From NCBI GenBank assembly GCA_017542465.1, contig JAFXXB010000040.1, positions 24,301-88,300 on the forward strand: a stretch of DNA of 64,000 nt. The letters are read 5' to 3'. Source of the stretch: Bacilli bacterium (GTDB lineage: Bacteria; Bacillota_I; Bacilli_A; RF39; UBA660). Shown here piece by piece: positions 9,912 to 15,488 of this stretch (its first letter is position 1; every line of letters starts with the position of its first letter). A program made the translations under genes and the position numbers. The notes beneath the pieces are model-generated. The model was given only the letters and a program-made list of their open reading frames with translations, was not told the DNA's origin and made no database searches.

Positions 9912-11306
9912 ATGAAAAAGAAAGGCAATATTAAATATAAAATTATAAATTTTAGTATTATATTGTTTGTATTAATTATATGTGCTTATGTCATATATAG
10001 TCTTTTTTTTATGAATAAATTTAAAATTGATGATTTTGAAAAGGACTTAGTTATCAACTATGGAAGTGAATTTAAGTCTAGTCATAAAGTTTGTTATGGA
10101 AATAAAAATAAATGTGATGAGATAACTCCAACAATTGAAGGTGAAGTTGATTATAATACAATAGGTAAATATGAAGTTAAGTATACATATCATTATAATA
10201 AGAAAGAACTAGTGTTGGATCAAATTGTAGAAGTAAAAGATATATCTGGACCAGTTATAAATATTAAAAATGAATCTGAAATAATAGCTTGTCCAAATGG
10301 TAAAAATAATATAGAGATAGAAGTTACAGATAATTATGATTCTGAAGTCACTAATATTAATCAAAGATTAGAAGATAATAAGGTTATAATTGAAGCAATA
10401 GATTCAAATAATAATAAAACAATAACAGAAATAGAAGTAACAGTTAAAGATGAAGAAAAACCTAAGATAACTATAAATGGTAGCAAGAATTTAACACATA
10501 TTATAGGTACTAAATATTCTGATAAAGGCGCAACAGCCACAGATAACTGTGATGATAAAGTAGAAGTTAAAACATCAGGTGAAGTAAATAAAGATAAAGA
10601 AGGTACTTATACAATTACTTATTCTGCTGAGGATTCATCAGGAAATAAAAGTGAAGCAACAAGAAAAGTAACAGTTAAAGAAAAGACCCCTGGAACTAGA
10701 GTTATATATTTAACATTTGATGATGGACCATCTAAATATACAAATGAATTATTAGATGTATTAAAAAAATATAATGTTAAAGCAACATTCTTTGTTACAT
10801 GTAAGGGTGATGATTCAATTATTCAAAGAGAATATAATGAAGGACATACAGTAGCACTTCATACATGCTCTCATGTATATTCTCAAGTATATGCATCATA
10901 TGATGCTTATTTTAAAGATTTAAATAATGTTAAAGCAAGAGTTAAAAGATTAACAGGTTATAATGCAAATATTGTAAGATTTCCGGGTGGTACATCTAAT
11001 GCTAGATCTATAAGTCCAAATATATCTATGAAAACACTTGCAAGTAAAGTATTAAATAATGGATATTATTATTTTGATTGGAATATATCAAGTGGTGATG
11101 CAGGAGAAACAACATCGACTGATGTAGTATATTCTAATGTAGTTAATCATCTAAAATCTGGTACTTCTGTAGTATTACAACATGATACAAAAGGATATTC
11201 AGTAAAAGCTGTTGAACGTATAATTCAATATGGATTAGAAAATGGTTATACCTTTGAAAGATTAACTCCATCATCACCTAAAATAAGACATGGGGCTGGC
11301 CATTAG
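9912..11306 (+). CDS. membrane-anchored polysaccharide/peptidoglycan deacetylase (NodB domain) with Ig-like repeats
   Basis: An N-terminal TM is followed by DUF5011/Ig-like repeats ('KYSDKGATATDNCDDKVEVKTSGEVNKDKEGTYTITYSAEDSSGNKSEATRKVTV'). The NodB motifs are 'IYLTFDDGPS', 'HTVALHTCSH' and 'RFPGG'. Confidence 0.85.
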   Translation: MKKKGNIKYKIINFSIILFVLIICAYVIYSLFFMNKFKIDDFEKDLVINYGSEFKSSHKVCYGNKNKCDEITPTIEGEVDYNTIGKYEVKYTYHYNKKELVLDQIVEVKDISGPVINIKNESEIIACPNGKNNIEIEVTDNYDSEVTNINQRLEDNKVIIEAIDSNNNKTITEIEVTVKDEEKPKITINGSKNLTHIIGTKYSDKGATATDNCDDKVEVKTSGEVNKDKEGTYTITYSAEDSSGNKSEATRKVTVKEKTPGTRVIYLTFDDGPSKYTNELLDVLKKYNVKATFFVTCKGDDSIIQREYNEGHTVALHTCSHVYSQVYASYDAYFKDLNNVKARVKRLTGYNANIVRFPGGTSNARSISPNISMKTLASKVLNNGYYYFDWNISSGDAGETTSTDVVYSNVVNHLKSGTSVVLQHDTKGYSVKAVERIIQYGLENGYTFERLTPSSPKIRHGAGH

Positions 11307-11330
11307 AAAAAATGAGTCAACCCTTTTAAT

Positions 11331-11359
11331 TTGACAAAGAATATAATCAGTGATATTAT
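11331..11359 (+). promoter_or_regulatory. sigma-70-type promoter with extended -10
   Basis: TTGACA (11331-11336), 17 nt, then TGaTATTAT (TATTAT at 11354-11359). Confidence 0.65.
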
Positions 11360-11391
11360 GTTGTCGAATTTGAAGAGAGAGGAGTGAGAAC

Positions 11392-11478
11392 ATGATAGCA
11401 AATAAAACAAATTCAAAACAATTTATTTTTAGAGTATTTGAACAAATGGCTTGCGGGATTGTTCTCGCTTCATTTTAA
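11392..11478 (+). CDS. candidate 28-aa leader peptide upstream of the ABC exporter
   Basis: A strong RBS precedes it (GAGAGGAGTGAgaacATG). The product is 'MIANKTNSKQFIFRVFEQMACGIVLASF*'. It lies between a consensus promoter and an intrinsic terminator that precedes the ABC gene. Confidence 0.5.
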   Translation: MIANKTNSKQFIFRVFEQMACGIVLASF

Positions 11479-11508
11479 CTTTTTAGTGTATAAAAATATA
11501 TAATTGTT

Positions 11509-11539
11509 AAAGGAGTCATTTGTATGGCTCCTTTTTTTG
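11509..11539 (+). terminator. intrinsic terminator / candidate attenuator between the leader ORF and the ABC exporter
   Basis: AGGAGTCAT-ttgt-ATGGCTCCT (one G-T pair) followed by T7. It lies about 20 nt upstream of the ABC start codon and inside the track's spurious N-terminal extension. Confidence 0.65.
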
Positions 11540-11561
11540 TTGGAAAGAAGAAGGTGGTCAT

Positions 11562-13295
11562 ATGAAAAAGTTAGATAGTTTTAAATTACTTTTTAAGTAT
11601 TTAAATAAAGATAAATTTAAAATGATTATCTATATACTCTTAGTATTATCAACCTATGTACCAGTTTTATCGGCCGCCTATTTTTGGGGTAAGGGCTTAG
11701 AGAACTTATTATCAAATAATTTCATTTGGTTTGTTATATACGTGGGTATATGGACATTTATTTATATTTTATGTTTTACCATTTTTCAAATATTCAGAGA
11801 TAAATTATACAATTATTTAGAGATTAAATTTACAAAGAATGTATCAATTGATTTATACAATAAGATTGATAAGTTACCTGCTATAGCTTTTGAGGATATT
11901 GGGGTTGGAGAGTTTATTAATAGACTTCATAATGATACAGATAGAATTATGTCTTTATTAAGTCAATTAATTAAATTAGCCTGTAAGTCATTAGCTATTA
12001 TAGCTGTATTAATATTATCATTTAAGATTTCATGGATTCTTGGTGTTGAGATATTAACTTTTGGCCTAGTAATGGGCTTTATATCAACGTACTTTTTCCC
12101 TAAAATTAAGAAGACTCAAGAAAACATTAAAACAGAATCAGATGAGTATGTTAAGAAAGCTACAGAGAATATTACAGGAATAAGAGAGATTAAAGCATTA
12201 GGTATAAAGGACATCATTGAGTGTGATATTAAAAACGTATTAGATAACTTATTTAAACATGAGAAAGATATTAGATCATATGAAGTAATATACTATGCAT
12301 TAAATAACTTAATATATTTCTTATTAAACTTTATGATTTATTTCACTGCTGGTAAGTTTTTACTAGAAGGAAATATAACATATGCATTATTTACTATGCT
12401 TGATTCATATATATGGAGAATTGATGAGGTCGTTGAGTCTATTTCAGACTTTGGTGTATCCTTCAATAAAGTATCTGTTTCTTTAAAACGTATTGATGAG
12501 ATAGTAAATAATAGATTATATGAAGATGAACAATTTGGTACAATGGAATTGAGAAAAACTAAAGGTGTCATTGAATTTAAAGATGTTAAATTTAAGTATA
12601 GAGAAGATGAAGATTACACATTAAAAGGATTAAACTTAAAGGTTGAACCAAATAAAAAGACTGCCATTGTTGGTAGATCTGGAAATGGTAAATCAACATT
12701 ATTTAACCTATTATTAAGATACTTTGATGCATCTATTGGTGAAATCACTATTGATGGAATAAATATAAAAGAATTATCTGAGAAATCATTAAGATCAAAT
12801 GTATCAATAATCAGACAAACTCCATTCTTATTTAATGTTTCTATTTTAGATAACTTTAGATATGTTAAGAAAAATGTATCTCTAAGACAAGTAAGAGAAG
12901 TATGTAAGAAAGCCTATATTGATGATTATATTATGTCATTACCAAATGGTTATAACACTATAATTGGTGAAGGTGGAGTTAACTTATCAGGTGGTCAAAA
13001 ACAAAGAATAGCTATCGCAAGAACATTATTATTGAACACTAAGATTATATTATTTGATGAAGCAACATCTGCATTGGATAATGAATCACAAGAGTATATT
13101 AAGAAGACTATAGATTCTTTAGTTAAAGATCATACAATAATTATAGTTGCTCACCGTTTATCAACTATTGTAGATGCTGATGTAATTAACGTTATTGATA
13201 AGGGTAGACTTGCTGCTTCTGGTACTCATGATGAATTGTTAATTAACTCTAAAGTATATAACAAATTATATACAAATGAATCTTCAAATTCATAA
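11562..13295 (+). CDS. ABC exporter, fused permease/ATPase (MsbA/LmrA/BmrCD type)
   Basis: I moved the start to ATG 11562, behind GAAGGTGG. A six-TM domain is followed by an NBD with Walker A 'GRSGNGKST', signature 'LSGGQKQR' and Walker B 'ILFDEATSALD', then 'AHRLST'. Confidence 0.9.
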   Translation: MKKLDSFKLLFKYLNKDKFKMIIYILLVLSTYVPVLSAAYFWGKGLENLLSNNFIWFVIYVGIWTFIYILCFTIFQIFRDKLYNYLEIKFTKNVSIDLYNKIDKLPAIAFEDIGVGEFINRLHNDTDRIMSLLSQLIKLACKSLAIIAVLILSFKISWILGVEILTFGLVMGFISTYFFPKIKKTQENIKTESDEYVKKATENITGIREIKALGIKDIIECDIKNVLDNLFKHEKDIRSYEVIYYALNNLIYFLLNFMIYFTAGKFLLEGNITYALFTMLDSYIWRIDEVVESISDFGVSFNKVSVSLKRIDEIVNNRLYEDEQFGTMELRKTKGVIEFKDVKFKYREDEDYTLKGLNLKVEPNKKTAIVGRSGNGKSTLFNLLLRYFDASIGEITIDGINIKELSEKSLRSNVSIIRQTPFLFNVSILDNFRYVKKNVSLRQVREVCKKAYIDDYIMSLPNGYNTIIGEGGVNLSGGQKQRIAIARTLLLNTKIILFDEATSALDNESQEYIKKTIDSLVKDHTIIIVAHRLSTIVDADVINVIDKGRLAASGTHDELLINSKVYNKLYTNESSNS

Positions 13296-13324
13296 GAAGA
13301 AGTGTAATGCTTCTTCTTTTTTTT
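13294..13324 (+). terminator. rho-independent terminator
   Basis: AAGAAGAAG-tgtaatg-CTTCTTCTT followed by a T-run. Confidence 0.75.
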
Positions 13325-13370
13325 ATATATTTATAATGATATAATATAAATGAAATAAAGGGTGATAAGA

Positions 13371-15488
13371 ATGTATTGCGGTAATTGTGGAAACAAGAAT
13401 GAAGAAGGAGCTTTATTTTGTTCTAACTGTGGAACAAAAATAGAAAAGCTAGTTGAAGTAAAAGAAGAAAAGAAAGAGGAAGTTAAGGTAGTTGAACCAG
13501 TTCAACCTGTACAACCACAACCTCCGGTTCAACCAGTAAATAATAATTCTGGAATGCCTATGTGGCAAAAACTTGTTATTGTTGGTTTATTATTATTTTT
13601 AATATTTATATTAATTATAATAATAGTAGTTGTAGCTATATTAAAACCTGGTAATAATCCGACTAAAAAGAGAGGCAACCAAGCAGATACTCGTACAGTT
13701 ATGATTTATATAGATGGAAGTAACTTAGAGACTGATGCTGGTATTGTTACAAGTGAATTAAATGCCATTAAACCTGAAACCATAGATTTAGATAAAGTTA
13801 ATATCTTATTATATACAGGTGGAACATCTAAATGGCATAACTTTATTAAGAATAATGAAAATGCTATTTATAAATTAACTAAAGATGGATTTGAGAAGGT
13901 TGAAACATATCAAAAGAAAAATATGGGTGATCCTTCTACACTTTCAGAATTCTTAAATTATGCTTATGATAATTATAGTGCTGGACATTATAATTTAGTT
14001 TTATATAATCATGGTGGAGCTATAGATGGTGCAATATATGATGATTTTACTCGTGATAACTTAACACTTGAAGATTTCCATAAAGCATTAAAAGATAGTA
14101 GATTTAATGAAAATAATAAGATGGATGCTGTAATATTCAGAACTTGTTTAAACGGTACTCTTGAAGTAGCAAGTGTATTTGATGATTATGCAGATTATAT
14201 AGTATTCTCAGAAGAAATTACTTTAGGATCAGGAATGTCTAATGTATTAGGATATTTCTTAAATGGAATTGATTCTACATCTGATGGAGCTAAGATAGGT
14301 GAAAAGTTTATTGATGGATATAATAAACAAATGGAAGATATAGATATTCTTGGTACTCAAGCTGTAACTTATTCAATTATTGATTTATCTAAAGTTAAAC
14401 CTTTAATAAATAAATTAGATAGTTATATGACTACAATAGATTTAAAGAATAATTATAAAGAAATATCAACAATTAGAAATGGATTATATCAATATGGTAA
14501 AGTTGAACCATCATATGATACTATTGATTTAAAAGAATTTATAAAAGAAGTTAAACCATATGCTACAGGAGATGCAGATGATTTAATAAAGAGTATAGAT
14601 GAAGCTATAGTTAAGAATAATACTAACTTATCTAAGTCTCATGGTTTATCTGTTTACTTCCCTTATAATGGTAAAGCACAAATAATTCAAAGATTTATTA
14701 ATGTATATAATAAATTAGAGTTCTCTAAGAACTATCAATCATTCATTAGTTCATTCATTACTGCTAAGGGTCAAACATCATCATTTAATTATAACTTAAC
14801 AACTAATGAATCAACTGTTACTAATGATAAAGAAGTAACATTACAATTAACAGATGAACAAAAGAGTAATATTGTAAGAAGTGCTTACTATGTATTTAGA
14901 AGAGAAGAAGAAAAAGATAGAAAACAATATTACCAAATGGTATATGCATCTAATAATTCAACAATTGATAATGGTGTAGTATCGACTCACTTTAATAATA
15001 AACTTGTAACAATAAGGGAAGAAGGAGATACAGAATATCAATACATATGTGTTATAGATGAAATAAATGATAATAACAGCAAGAAATCAGTAGGTGCTAC
15101 TATTATAGATACTGATGAAGATGTATTAAGTGATAGTAGAAGAGTATCAGCTGATTTACTTATTGAAGATCATGATGGAACTCCTAAGTTTGGTAAGATG
15201 GAATTGATGTCTAGAGATGAAAGAGTGCAAGGAGTTTTATATGATACTTCTAAATATGAAAAAATCCAAATAATGAAGACTTCACCTAAAGTATTAGATG
15301 ATAAAGGTAAAGTAATGGATAACAGTAAATGGACATTCCCTAAAGTAAGATATGGTTTTGAAGGATCATTAGATAAGATTAAACTTGAGTATACCGGATT
15401 AGATGATGGAGAATTCTATGTATTATTCTTCTTATTTGACTACAATGGAAATAGATATTTATCTGATTTAATAAAGGTTGGTGAATAA
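13371..15488 (+). CDS. membrane-anchored clostripain-like (C11) cysteine peptidase with an N-terminal cytoplasmic zinc ribbon
   Basis: The zinc ribbon is 'MYCGNCGNKNEEGALFCSNCG'. A Pro/Gln linker ('PVQPVQPQPPVQPV') and a TM follow. The C11 motifs are 'RTVMIYIDGSNLE', 'LYNHGGAIDG' (His) and 'VIFRTCLNG' (Cys). Confidence 0.75.
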   Translation: MYCGNCGNKNEEGALFCSNCGTKIEKLVEVKEEKKEEVKVVEPVQPVQPQPPVQPVNNNSGMPMWQKLVIVGLLLFLIFILIIIIVVVAILKPGNNPTKKRGNQADTRTVMIYIDGSNLETDAGIVTSELNAIKPETIDLDKVNILLYTGGTSKWHNFIKNNENAIYKLTKDGFEKVETYQKKNMGDPSTLSEFLNYAYDNYSAGHYNLVLYNHGGAIDGAIYDDFTRDNLTLEDFHKALKDSRFNENNKMDAVIFRTCLNGTLEVASVFDDYADYIVFSEEITLGSGMSNVLGYFLNGIDSTSDGAKIGEKFIDGYNKQMEDIDILGTQAVTYSIIDLSKVKPLINKLDSYMTTIDLKNNYKEISTIRNGLYQYGKVEPSYDTIDLKEFIKEVKPYATGDADDLIKSIDEAIVKNNTNLSKSHGLSVYFPYNGKAQIIQRFINVYNKLEFSKNYQSFISSFITAKGQTSSFNYNLTTNESTVTNDKEVTLQLTDEQKSNIVRSAYYVFRREEEKDRKQYYQMVYASNNSTIDNGVVSTHFNNKLVTIREEGDTEYQYICVIDEINDNNSKKSVGATIIDTDEDVLSDSRRVSADLLIEDHDGTPKFGKMELMSRDERVQGVLYDTSKYEKIQIMKTSPKVLDDKGKVMDNSKWTFPKVRYGFEGSLDKIKLEYTGLDDGEFYVLFFLFDYNGNRYLSDLIKVGE

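Follow-up and report, generated by a model that had tools for sequence, protein, structure and literature searches.

The window, which is the whole 64,000-nucleotide stretch of DNA that was analysed, contains a gene for an ABC exporter that is preceded by a leader with a promoter, a small open reading frame (ORF) with its own Shine-Dalgarno (SD) sequence, and an intrinsic terminator. The features of this region, including the predicted RNA helices P0, P1, P2 and the antiterminator (AT), are as follows.

11316 to 11336, unstranded: inverted repeat GTCAAC-N9-TTTGACA, the right half of which doubles as the -35 box
11331 to 11359, plus strand: near-consensus promoter with an extended -10 box (TTGACA, 17 nt, TGaTATTAT)
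11366 to 11414, plus strand: P0, 5'-terminal stem, GAAUUUG at 11366-72 with CAAAUUC at 11408-14 (codons 6-8)
11376 to 11384, plus strand: SD AGAGAGGAG, 7 nt upstream of the leader ATG at 11392
11376 to 11393, plus strand: P1 5' strand (segment 1), consisting of the extended SD AGAGAGGAG, the spacer and the start codon
11392 to 11478, plus strand: leader ORF of 28 codons plus TAA, peptide MIANKTNSKQFIFRVFEQMACGIVLASF
11442 to 11452, plus strand: AT 5' strand ACAAAUGGCUU in codons 17-21, 11 bp with 11513-23
11453 to 11468, plus strand: P2, local hairpin GCGGGA-uugu-UCUCGC, -7.4 kcal/mol
11459 to 11477, plus strand: P1 3' strand UUGUUCUCGCUUCAUUUUA, an anti-SD mimic in codons 23-28 plus the stop codon
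11509 to 11538, plus strand: intrinsic terminator (T) AAAGGAGTCAT-ttgt-ATGGCTCCTTT, 11-bp stem and U7 run, -13.7 kcal/mol
11562 to 13295, plus strand: ABC exporter gene, 577 amino acids, with SD GAAGGTGG at 11550-57
13294 to 13326, plus strand: terminator after the ABC stop codon, 11-bp stem plus T-run

The exporter contains the Pfam domains ABC_membrane and ABC_tran (transmembrane and nucleotide-binding), with no peptidase C39 domain detected by Pfam, and reaches no equivalog cut-off in NCBIfam; it is a half-transporter of the ABCB/Sav1866/MsbA type. The original prediction, which was made from the sequence alone, had placed a terminator shortly before the ABC start codon. The terminator was confirmed, but the start was corrected to ATG 11562, 23 nt past the T-run. 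Doubt had also been cast on an N-terminal extension of this gene; the extended frame starts at TTG-11520 inside the terminator loop, and the extension finds no support in the alignment of orthologues, which starts at the ATG. The exporter gene is monocistronic, as a terminator is located directly behind its stop codon, and the next gene downstream encodes a Zn-ribbon/peptidase C11 protein. Within the genus, the exporter cassette is present in some genomes and not in others; a clean empty site for it was not found, and the genes lying ahead of the C11 peptidase orthologue differ among same-genus genomes.

The leader was compared among 40 non-redundant homologous leaders from related uncultured small-genome gut Bacilli, and the entire arrangement of elements recurs across these loci. 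Homologous genes for an ABCB-type half-transporter (identity 34-80%) lie behind 38 of the 40 leaders. A sub-type of the leader precedes an operon encoding an ASCH-cytidine-deaminase and a GNAT acetyltransferase in 14 of the 17 such loci. A lead pointing to blasticidin-S deaminase was weak and was set aside, the deaminase domain being closer to ordinary cytidine deaminases.

Both the near-consensus promoter and the strong SD of the original prediction were found, the former with TTGACA at 11331-36, TG at 11351-52 and TATTAT at 11354-59 (11 of 12 consensus positions plus the TG extension), and the latter 7 nt ahead of ATG 11392. The transcript is predicted to start at G 11366. In nearly all 40 loci, a TTGACA-type -35 box and a TGn -10 box are equally spaced from the conserved 5' end of the leader. 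The inverted repeat at the -35 box is possibly an operator for a dimeric regulator, which would constitute a second layer of control, and the pattern TGT(T/C)AAC-N8-9-GTTGACA was present in strict form in 16 of the 40 homologous promoters and in loose form in about 24. A genome-wide search found no other copies of the -35 palindrome and no regulon of such sites, so that no regulator could be assigned to it.

The 28-codon ORF proposed for the leader was recovered with the same peptide, and conservation of this ORF, which the original prediction had suggested examining, was found for the frame and not for the peptide. In 40 of 40 leaders the ATG frame stays open over 18-34 codons, whereas the other two frames reach that length in none of them and never exceed 14 codons, and the SD AGGAG is located at a constant 7-8 nt from the leader ATG. 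The peptide sequence is unconserved across the 40 loci, despite the open frame and the presence of indels. The leader ORF thus appears, from these comparisons, to be a short frame with its own SD and start codon that has been kept open by selection. No arrest motif was found in the leader peptides, macrolide-type '+x+' arrest motifs were not enriched (0.25, compared with 0.23 in ordinary N-termini), and the leader ORFs share no conserved run of identical codons. An excess of Lys and Asn in the early codons agrees with AT-rich N-termini and with the P0 strand.

A layout common for bacteriocins combines a small hydrophobic ORF with a hairpin and an ABC exporter, and all three are present here. 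The ORF might accordingly encode an exported or bioactive peptide, such as a bacteriocin or pheromone, with the terminator just setting the ratio of peptide to transporter, but the probability of this is very slight: no residue is conserved among the peptides, the reading frame of the conserved RNA strands varies, a Gly-Gly leader is absent, the ABC protein is without a C39 peptidase domain, modification and immunity genes are absent nearby, and the same type of leader also precedes enzymes that have no role in transport. The first 30 nt of the leader are better conserved than the exporter protein, and a pseudoknot of P0 and P1 could form, both of which would suit a ligand- or protein-binding leader RNA with an incidental ORF. 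This is extremely unlikely given the frame that is open in all loci while the alternative frames are open in none, the strong SD at its near-constant distance from the ATG, the absence of an Rfam match, and the identity of the conserved 5' sequence, which is the extended SD itself.

The clean terminator that had been predicted was confirmed as a stem-loop at 11509-34 (5' arm 11509-19, loop 11520-23, 3' arm 11524-34) with a T-run extending to 11538. It begins 30 nt after the leader stop codon in this window, and the spacer between stop codon and terminator ranges from -2 to 35 nt across loci. A local terminator is present in 37 of the 40 loci; a separate terminator is missing in the other three leaders, one of which precedes a truncated ABC remnant. 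A scan detected 3 terminator-like sites in 2 kb where 0.4 were expected, and the leader has a folding z-score of -4.1; this excess and this z-score, together with the recurrence in 40 loci, place the arrangement of elements beyond chance.

Folding of the leader, which had been proposed as a check for mutually exclusive terminator and antiterminator structures, identified such a pair and thereby the antiterminator that the original prediction had not been able to pinpoint. Positions 11513-23 of the terminator (5' arm and loop) double as the 3' strand of AT, the 5' strand of which falls within codons 10-22 across loci, with the AT centre at 0.36 ± 0.05 of the distance from the AUG to the terminator. 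The terminator sequence varies between loci, yet each terminator is matched by the mid-ORF segment of its own locus. The energy of the AT duplex was -12.1 kcal/mol for own-locus pairs, compared with -6.9 kcal/mol for cross-locus and -6.1 kcal/mol for shuffled pairs, and the observed own-locus match was reached in 0 of 20,000 permutations (p < 5e-5), so that AT covaries with the terminator of its own locus.

The second long-range helix, P1, pairs the extended SD and the start codon with the 3' end of the ORF, and segment 2 comprises its 3' strand and the 5' strand of AT. Its energy is -19.2 kcal/mol in this window and averages -16.3 kcal/mol (z -4.3) over the 40 loci, and it is part of the MFE structure in 9 of the first 10 loci. 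MAFFT alignments of the leaders misplaced the P1 3' strand, and a CM was therefore built from six well-aligned sequences; on the CM alignment, 89% of P1 cells are paired, compared with 46-67% when the strands are slid. P1 shows compensatory changes, six of its 12 pairs are altered on both sides, the covariation score is 0.317 compared with 0.178 (0 of 500 shuffles), and the P1 core was recovered independently by RNAalifold. The reading frame of the P1 3' strand changes from clade to clade, and the stop codon lies between -7 and +13 nt from the end of this strand in all loci. The 3' end of the 16S RNA is absent from this MAG.

The small hairpin that the original prediction had noted in the GC-richer part of the ORF (GCGGGA-ttgt-TCTCGC) was found at 11453-68 and corresponds to P2. 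It contains an internal SD mimic that pairs with the anti-SD strand. An equivalent hairpin occurs in the MFE structure of most of the 40 loci and is significant against shuffles (z < -1.5) in 19 of them, and one locus (L003) carries the compensatory form GUGGGA/UCUCAC. In the structural model, P2 is a conserved decoy that engages the P1 3' strand during read-through. The 5'-terminal stem P0, whose loop encloses the SD and the AUG, probably stabilises the 5' end or gates initiation. Its early-ORF sequence AAUUC was present in 18 of the 40 loci, compared with 2 of 40 in a control window; it falls in differing reading frames, and positions 7-9 covary.

The open frame in all 40 leaders, the covarying AT, the compensatory changes in P1 and the conserved P2 support the original reading of the leader as a ribosome-mediated (leader-peptide) transcription attenuator, and this is probably how the monocistronic ABCB-type exporter gene is controlled. 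In the proposed mechanism, four RNA segments would form three mutually exclusive pairings (P1, AT and T) in the style of the trp leader, with P1 acting as an anti-antiterminator. When the SD is free of ribosomes, P1 would form, AT would be disfavoured and T would terminate transcription. A normally elongating ribosome would sit on the AT 5' strand while the terminator is being made, again allowing T to form. A ribosome held at the SD, at the start codon or within about the first six codons would block P1; with the SD occupied, P2 would provide the P1 3' strand with a decoy partner, P2 and AT would form, and RNA polymerase would enter the exporter gene. We infer that the natural signal is most likely impaired initiation or early elongation, as caused for example by ribosome-targeting antibiotics, and that the exporter, as originally suggested, would be induced by translation-targeting compounds. 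Because the leader peptide is unconserved, such sensing would be sequence-independent, and the leader may be a simple ribosome-arrest sensor of that kind.

The ribosome position that would lead to read-through was modelled by ribosome-position scans on 37 loci, with the transcript ending before the 3' arm of T. With one of codons 0-5 in the P-site, AT occupancy was 0.82; it was about 0.1 for codons 9-20 and 0.55-0.7 for the last four codons. In the ribosome-free case it averaged 0.51 over the 37 loci and was 0.28 in this window. In the folding model, P1 thus works as an anti-antiterminator only in part, since AT averages 0.51 without a ribosome and P1 and AT do not directly overlap in this window. 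The full window leader without a ribosome retained the terminator with a probability of 0.87 in the folding model, and blocking of nt -12 to +14 around the AUG flipped the window model to P2 plus AT. For the full-length window leader at equilibrium, the terminator won in folding even with a ribosome on the AUG, so the model depends on AT forming first during transcription.

The intermediate AT occupancy at the last four codons also bears on an attenuator of opposite polarity, in which read-through needs a ribosome that has arrived at, or is stuck on, the final codons or the stop codon. Such a ribosome would occupy the P1 3' strand without covering the AT 5' strand. Transcription would terminate if translation were slow or absent, and expression of the exporter would require efficient translation of the leader or inhibited peptide release. 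The window model does form AT when the A site holds the stop codon, the stop codon always lies close to the end of the P1 3' strand, and in loci with short spacers a terminating ribosome would also cover the terminator 5' arm. We nevertheless consider this polarity unlikely, because the conserved P2 decoy is useful only if the P1 3' strand is free of ribosomes in the ON state, the spacer between stop codon and terminator varies widely, no obvious advantage would come from silencing an exporter and modifying enzymes when translation is under stress, and the known relatives of the design, bmrB and vmlR, are induced by stalling.

In the trp leader of Escherichia coli, a ribosome on segment 1 frees segment 2 to form the antiterminator, whereas in the absence of translation the 1:2 and 3:4 pairings form and transcription terminates (summarised in PMC4191407). 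P1, AT and T are arranged in the same way, as 1:2, 2:3 and 3:4, but segment 1 here consists of the ribosome-binding site and start codon and not of regulatory codons inside the ORF, and the diagnostic codon runs of trpL, hisL and similar leaders are absent. The shared topology, and a cytidine-deaminase fusion (that is, pyrimidine metabolism) as one of the cargoes, could indicate a sensor of the trpL or pyrBI type, responding to scarce charged tRNA or to UTP-dependent polymerase pausing. This is very unlikely, since there is no conserved run of identical codons and the Lys/Asn excess is accounted for by AT-rich N-termini and the P0 strand, the ORF in this window ends ahead of the terminator, which makes a direct block of the pyrBI type impossible, and the main cargo is an exporter.

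The attenuator had originally been described as similar to bmrB/bmrCD of Bacillus subtilis, where an ABC exporter is regulated through a translated leader ORF, an intrinsic terminator and an alternative antiterminator (Reilman et al. 2014, PMC4191407). Efficient translation of bmrB leads to the terminator and slowed translation to the antiterminator, and the terminator, AT and anti-antiterminator (AAT) are all located within its coding region of about 53 codons, at nucleotides 60-162 (PMC4191407). This comparison holds for the logic, which in both cases is ribosome-mediated attenuation of an ABC exporter, and not for the architecture: the ORF here has 28 codons, the terminator lies 30 nt beyond the stop codon and not inside the ORF, the anti-antiterminator is a helix of the SD and start codon, and the cargo is a single monocistronic half-transporter of the homodimer type, whereas bmrCD encodes a heterodimer pair. 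A three-tier AAT/AT/terminator logic was reported for the vmlR leader of B. subtilis and for lmo0919-type leaders (Takada et al. 2022, PMC9226507). In vmlR, a ribosome arrested at the start of a 3-codon uORF within a local hairpin blocks the anti-antiterminator and causes read-through, the sensing is independent of peptide sequence, and the cargo is an ABC-F ribosome-protection factor (PMC9226507). As modelled here, the anti-antiterminator would likewise hold the ORF start and be disrupted by the initiating ribosome, but the ORF has 18-34 codons and not 3, the AAT is a long-range helix from the SD and AUG to the ORF's own 3' end, accompanied by a decoy hairpin, and the genes controlled encode an ABCB-type membrane exporter or modifying enzymes and not an ABC-F factor. 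The leader resembles bmrB and vmlR in design, without apparent homology to either.

The combination of export and modifying enzymes as cargo fits a response to a translation inhibitor, and both the exporter and the unrelated enzyme operon are marked by the leader as likely inducible by translation stress. A broader proposal, which we put forward tentatively and consider somewhat improbable, is that the leader is a generic sensor of the dwell time of the initiating ribosome, in which the ribosome would have a rival for the unusually long SD in a 16S anti-SD mimic encoded by the mRNA itself, while the internal SD decoy in P2 would latch the ON state. The module would have been repeatedly recruited and horizontally spread, giving a resistome-like regulon that responds to an unrecognised ribosome-targeting compound. 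If this were true, the ABCB exporter and the ASCH-cytidine-deaminase/GNAT operon would form a small regulon in uncultured gut Bacilli, and an unrecognised compound, possibly a cytosine-nucleoside one, would be present in ruminant and hindgut ecosystems. If confirmed, the leader could also help in spotting cryptic, inducible genes of a resistance-like kind in gut metagenomes.

While this type of control is well known, the leader family from uncultured gut Bacilli is absent from Rfam: the best match in an Rfam search of the region reached 20.9 bits where the gathering score is 228.9, the remaining matches had E-values above 0.2, and no description of this leader sequence family was found. For a lineage that is known from metagenomes alone, the analysis thus adds a well-supported cis-regulatory family that had not been annotated, in addition to correcting the exporter start codon. 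Default filters of Infernal drop many true AT-rich leaders, with recovery of 23 of 40 for R1, 12 of 40 for R2, and 1 of 14 for the ASCH-cytidine-deaminase leaders, and the genome counts are lower bounds because of these losses. In a class-wide CM search, the sole match outside the family was a false positive on an ordinary ribosome-binding site. TGA appears to be a sense codon in the genome containing that match.

The region 11100-11800 was read directly to check the elements behind the original prediction of a ribosome-mediated attenuator, and the promoter, Shine-Dalgarno sequence (SD), 28-codon ORF, hairpin and terminator were each present in the sequence.

Features of the leader and exporter gene (window coordinates, forward strand)
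11331-36 and 11351-59: promoter, TTGACA, 17-nt spacer and TG-n-TATTAT, 11 of 12 matches
11366-11372 with 11408-11414: P0, a 5'-terminal stem formed by the leader's first seven nucleotides and codons 6-8
11376-84: long SD, AGAGAGGAG
11376-93 with 11459-77: P1, the SD, spacer and AUG paired with the ORF's final codons and stop codon
11392-11478: leader ORF, 28 codons
11442-52 with 11513-23: antiterminator (AT), ACAAAUGGCUU (codons 17-21) paired with GAGUCAUUUGU (terminator 5' arm and loop)
11453-68: hairpin P2
11509-38: terminator T, 11-bp stem and U7, -13.7 kcal/mol
11550-57 and 11562: exporter SD and ATG start
13294-13326: second terminator, directly after the exporter stop codon

The 180-nt leader folded more stably than 200 of 200 shuffles (z -4.1) and had no Rfam match. 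An N-terminal extension of the ABC gene had been judged unlikely to be real; its TTG start at 11520 sits in the terminator loop and the orthologue alignment gives it no support.

Upstream regions of exporter orthologues (60-83% identity) and paralogues (~35-45%) shared a near-invariant 5' leader, GAATTTRAAGAGARAGGAGTGAGAAnATG, with a short ORF behind it, then a terminator and then the ABC gene. Within the family, a covariance model built on the leader 5' domain found one copy each in at least 30 genomes out of 301, and matches in a class-wide sample of 399 genomes were confined to this family, bar one false positive; these prevalence figures are lower bounds because the model's filters lose many AT-rich copies. 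The sole match outside the family (L142, G334:C1:641764-641878) was rejected as an ordinary ribosome-binding site; its genome, of 0.9 Mb, carries in-frame TGA codons in genes, apparently read as sense. Forty non-redundant leaders formed the comparative set, and 38 have an ABC homologue beginning 38-92 nt past the leader stop codon. In three loci (L008, L119 and L125) the long-range AT-like pairing is kept, with a U-run after it, and a separate terminator 3' arm is lacking; L119 looks like a decaying copy, since its ABC gene has shrunk to a 111-aa ORF.

The ATG frame was open for 18-34 codons (median 28) in all 40 loci, as against at most 14 codons in the other two frames. The prediction had looked to conservation of this ORF at orthologous loci, and the open frame is conserved though its peptide sequence varies: conserved RNA strands fall in different reading frames among loci, no conserved codon run was found among the 40 loci, and the leader peptides showed no enrichment of '+x+' arrest motifs. 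This pattern shows that the ORF is real and that selection is on its translation rather than on its product.

P1 had an energy of -19.2 kcal/mol in the window and a mean of -16.3 (z -4.3) over the 40 loci, and the ORF stop codon always lay -7 to +13 nt from the end of its 3' strand. On the covariance-model alignment, which was itself fitted to the model, 89% of P1 cells were paired versus 46-67% when the strands were slid, both-sided changes occurred in six of 12 pairs, and the covariation score was 0.317 versus 0.178 (0 of 500 shuffles); the P1 core was also predicted independently by RNAalifold. The mutually exclusive structures that the original prediction proposed to look for were found in AT, which pairs with the terminator 5' arm and loop. 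Terminator sequences vary among loci, yet each finds a fitting mid-ORF segment in its own locus, with mean duplex energies of -12.1 kcal/mol within a locus, -6.9 across loci and -6.1 after shuffling; none of 20,000 permutations equalled the own-locus mean. The open ORF, covarying P1 and locus-matched AT together support the attenuator reading. The hairpin of the original prediction, P2, in which an internal copy of the SD region binds the P1 3' strand, is seen in most loci and carries a compensatory change in one (L003). P0, whose loop holds the SD and start codon, is found in about half of the loci, covaries, and is conserved at the RNA level across three reading frames; it may act as a 5' stabiliser.

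P1, AT and T are laid out like the 1:2, 2:3 and 3:4 pairings of the trp leader, except that segment 1 is here the ribosome-binding site itself. In thermodynamic folding models, a 27-nt ribosome footprint was blocked at each codon and the transcript folded as just before the terminator 3' arm is made. AT occupancy was 0.82 with the P-site at codons 0-5, ~0.1 at codons 9-20, 0.55-0.7 at the last four codons, and 0.51 without a ribosome (0.28 for the window). In the model of the window's own leader, P1 formed and the terminator arm was free without a ribosome, and placing a ribosome on the AUG gave P2 and AT; when no ribosome was present, the full leader retained the terminator with a mean probability of 0.87. 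The centre of AT is 0.36 +/- 0.05 of the way from the AUG to the terminator. Given the uncoupling of transcription and translation described for Bacillus, a ribosome travelling at a third to half of polymerase speed would be on the AT strand at the decision moment. The modelled occupancies, window states and AT position favour a switch in which arrest of an initiating or early-elongating ribosome would lead to read-through, and normal elongation or absent translation to termination. Alternatively, the switch may be turned on by a ribosome that has come to the last codons or the stop codon, but the conserved decoy hairpin P2 speaks against this opposite polarity.

In its attenuation logic the leader agrees with bmrB-bmrCD, so that part of the 'bmrB/bmrCD-like' label holds; the rest does not, since there is one half-transporter instead of a BmrC/D pair and the terminator lies outside the leader ORF. 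The vmlR uORF likewise has an anti-antiterminator containing the start codon, but it is three codons long, not 18-34, and precedes an ABC-F factor, which the cargo here is not. These differences place the leader in neither family. The observation is real, and its interpretation as an attenuator of a known kind is supported.

The exporter gene codes for one half-transporter of 577 aa that carries the domains ABC_membrane and ABC_tran; its relatives include ABCB1, Sav1866 and MsbA, and it reached no NCBIfam equivalog cut-off. The terminator after the gene's stop codon makes it monocistronic, and the downstream Zn-ribbon/peptidase-C11 gene is a separate unit. The source genome is a 1.09-Mb MAG (26.9% G+C), and related records are MAGs of uncultured 'Bacilli', 'Tenericutes' or 'Erysipelotrichales' recovered from the gut of goat, deer, rabbit and horse. 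The cassette is present in some, not all, of the genus, and its neighbourhood is a variable locus. In two loci of the same genus (L144 and L146) compared with 9912-15488, the promoter-leader-ABC-terminator unit was missing, and the C11 peptidase orthologue was preceded by other genes, in one case a 166-aa ORF and in the second a lipoprotein-like ORF.

An inverted repeat, TGT(T/C)AAC-N8-9-GTTGACA, was observed at 11316-11336, with the -35 box as its right half. It was strict in 16 and loose in about 24 of the 40 leader promoters (equivalent positions in L002-L132) and may serve as an operator that overlaps the promoter; there was no indication of a regulon of copies elsewhere in the genome. The terminator 5' arm, AAAGGAGUCAU (11509-11519), resembles the leader SD region (11376-11386) and the exporter ribosome-binding site, GAAGGUGGUCAU (11550-11561), so that the freed 3' arm and U-run could pair with either. 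This pairing appeared in one modelled state and may be a translational layer or a coincidence.

One covariance-model match (L138) lies ahead of an ASCH/cytidine-deaminase domain fusion gene, and this leader sub-type precedes such a gene in 14 of 17 full-length copies, 74-90% identical across different genera (L138/L148, L149-L154 and L156-L162, e.g. L168:7700-10929). Its leader peptide is MKNLQVINNAELITTPNLLNF. The sub-type shares a P1 variant, GGAGUGUGAUUA/UAAUCAC, with an ABC-linked leader (L013), and its AT and P1 overlap directly. Exporter and modifying enzymes under one leader type fit a generic translation-stress signal. The deaminase domain resembles ordinary cytidine deaminases more than blasticidin-S deaminase, which makes any connection with nucleoside antibiotics no more than a lead. 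The fusion gene opens an operon that also encodes two or three GNAT acetyltransferases and an unknown protein of 130 aa, and the nearly identical upstream DNA in five loci suggests recent horizontal spread.
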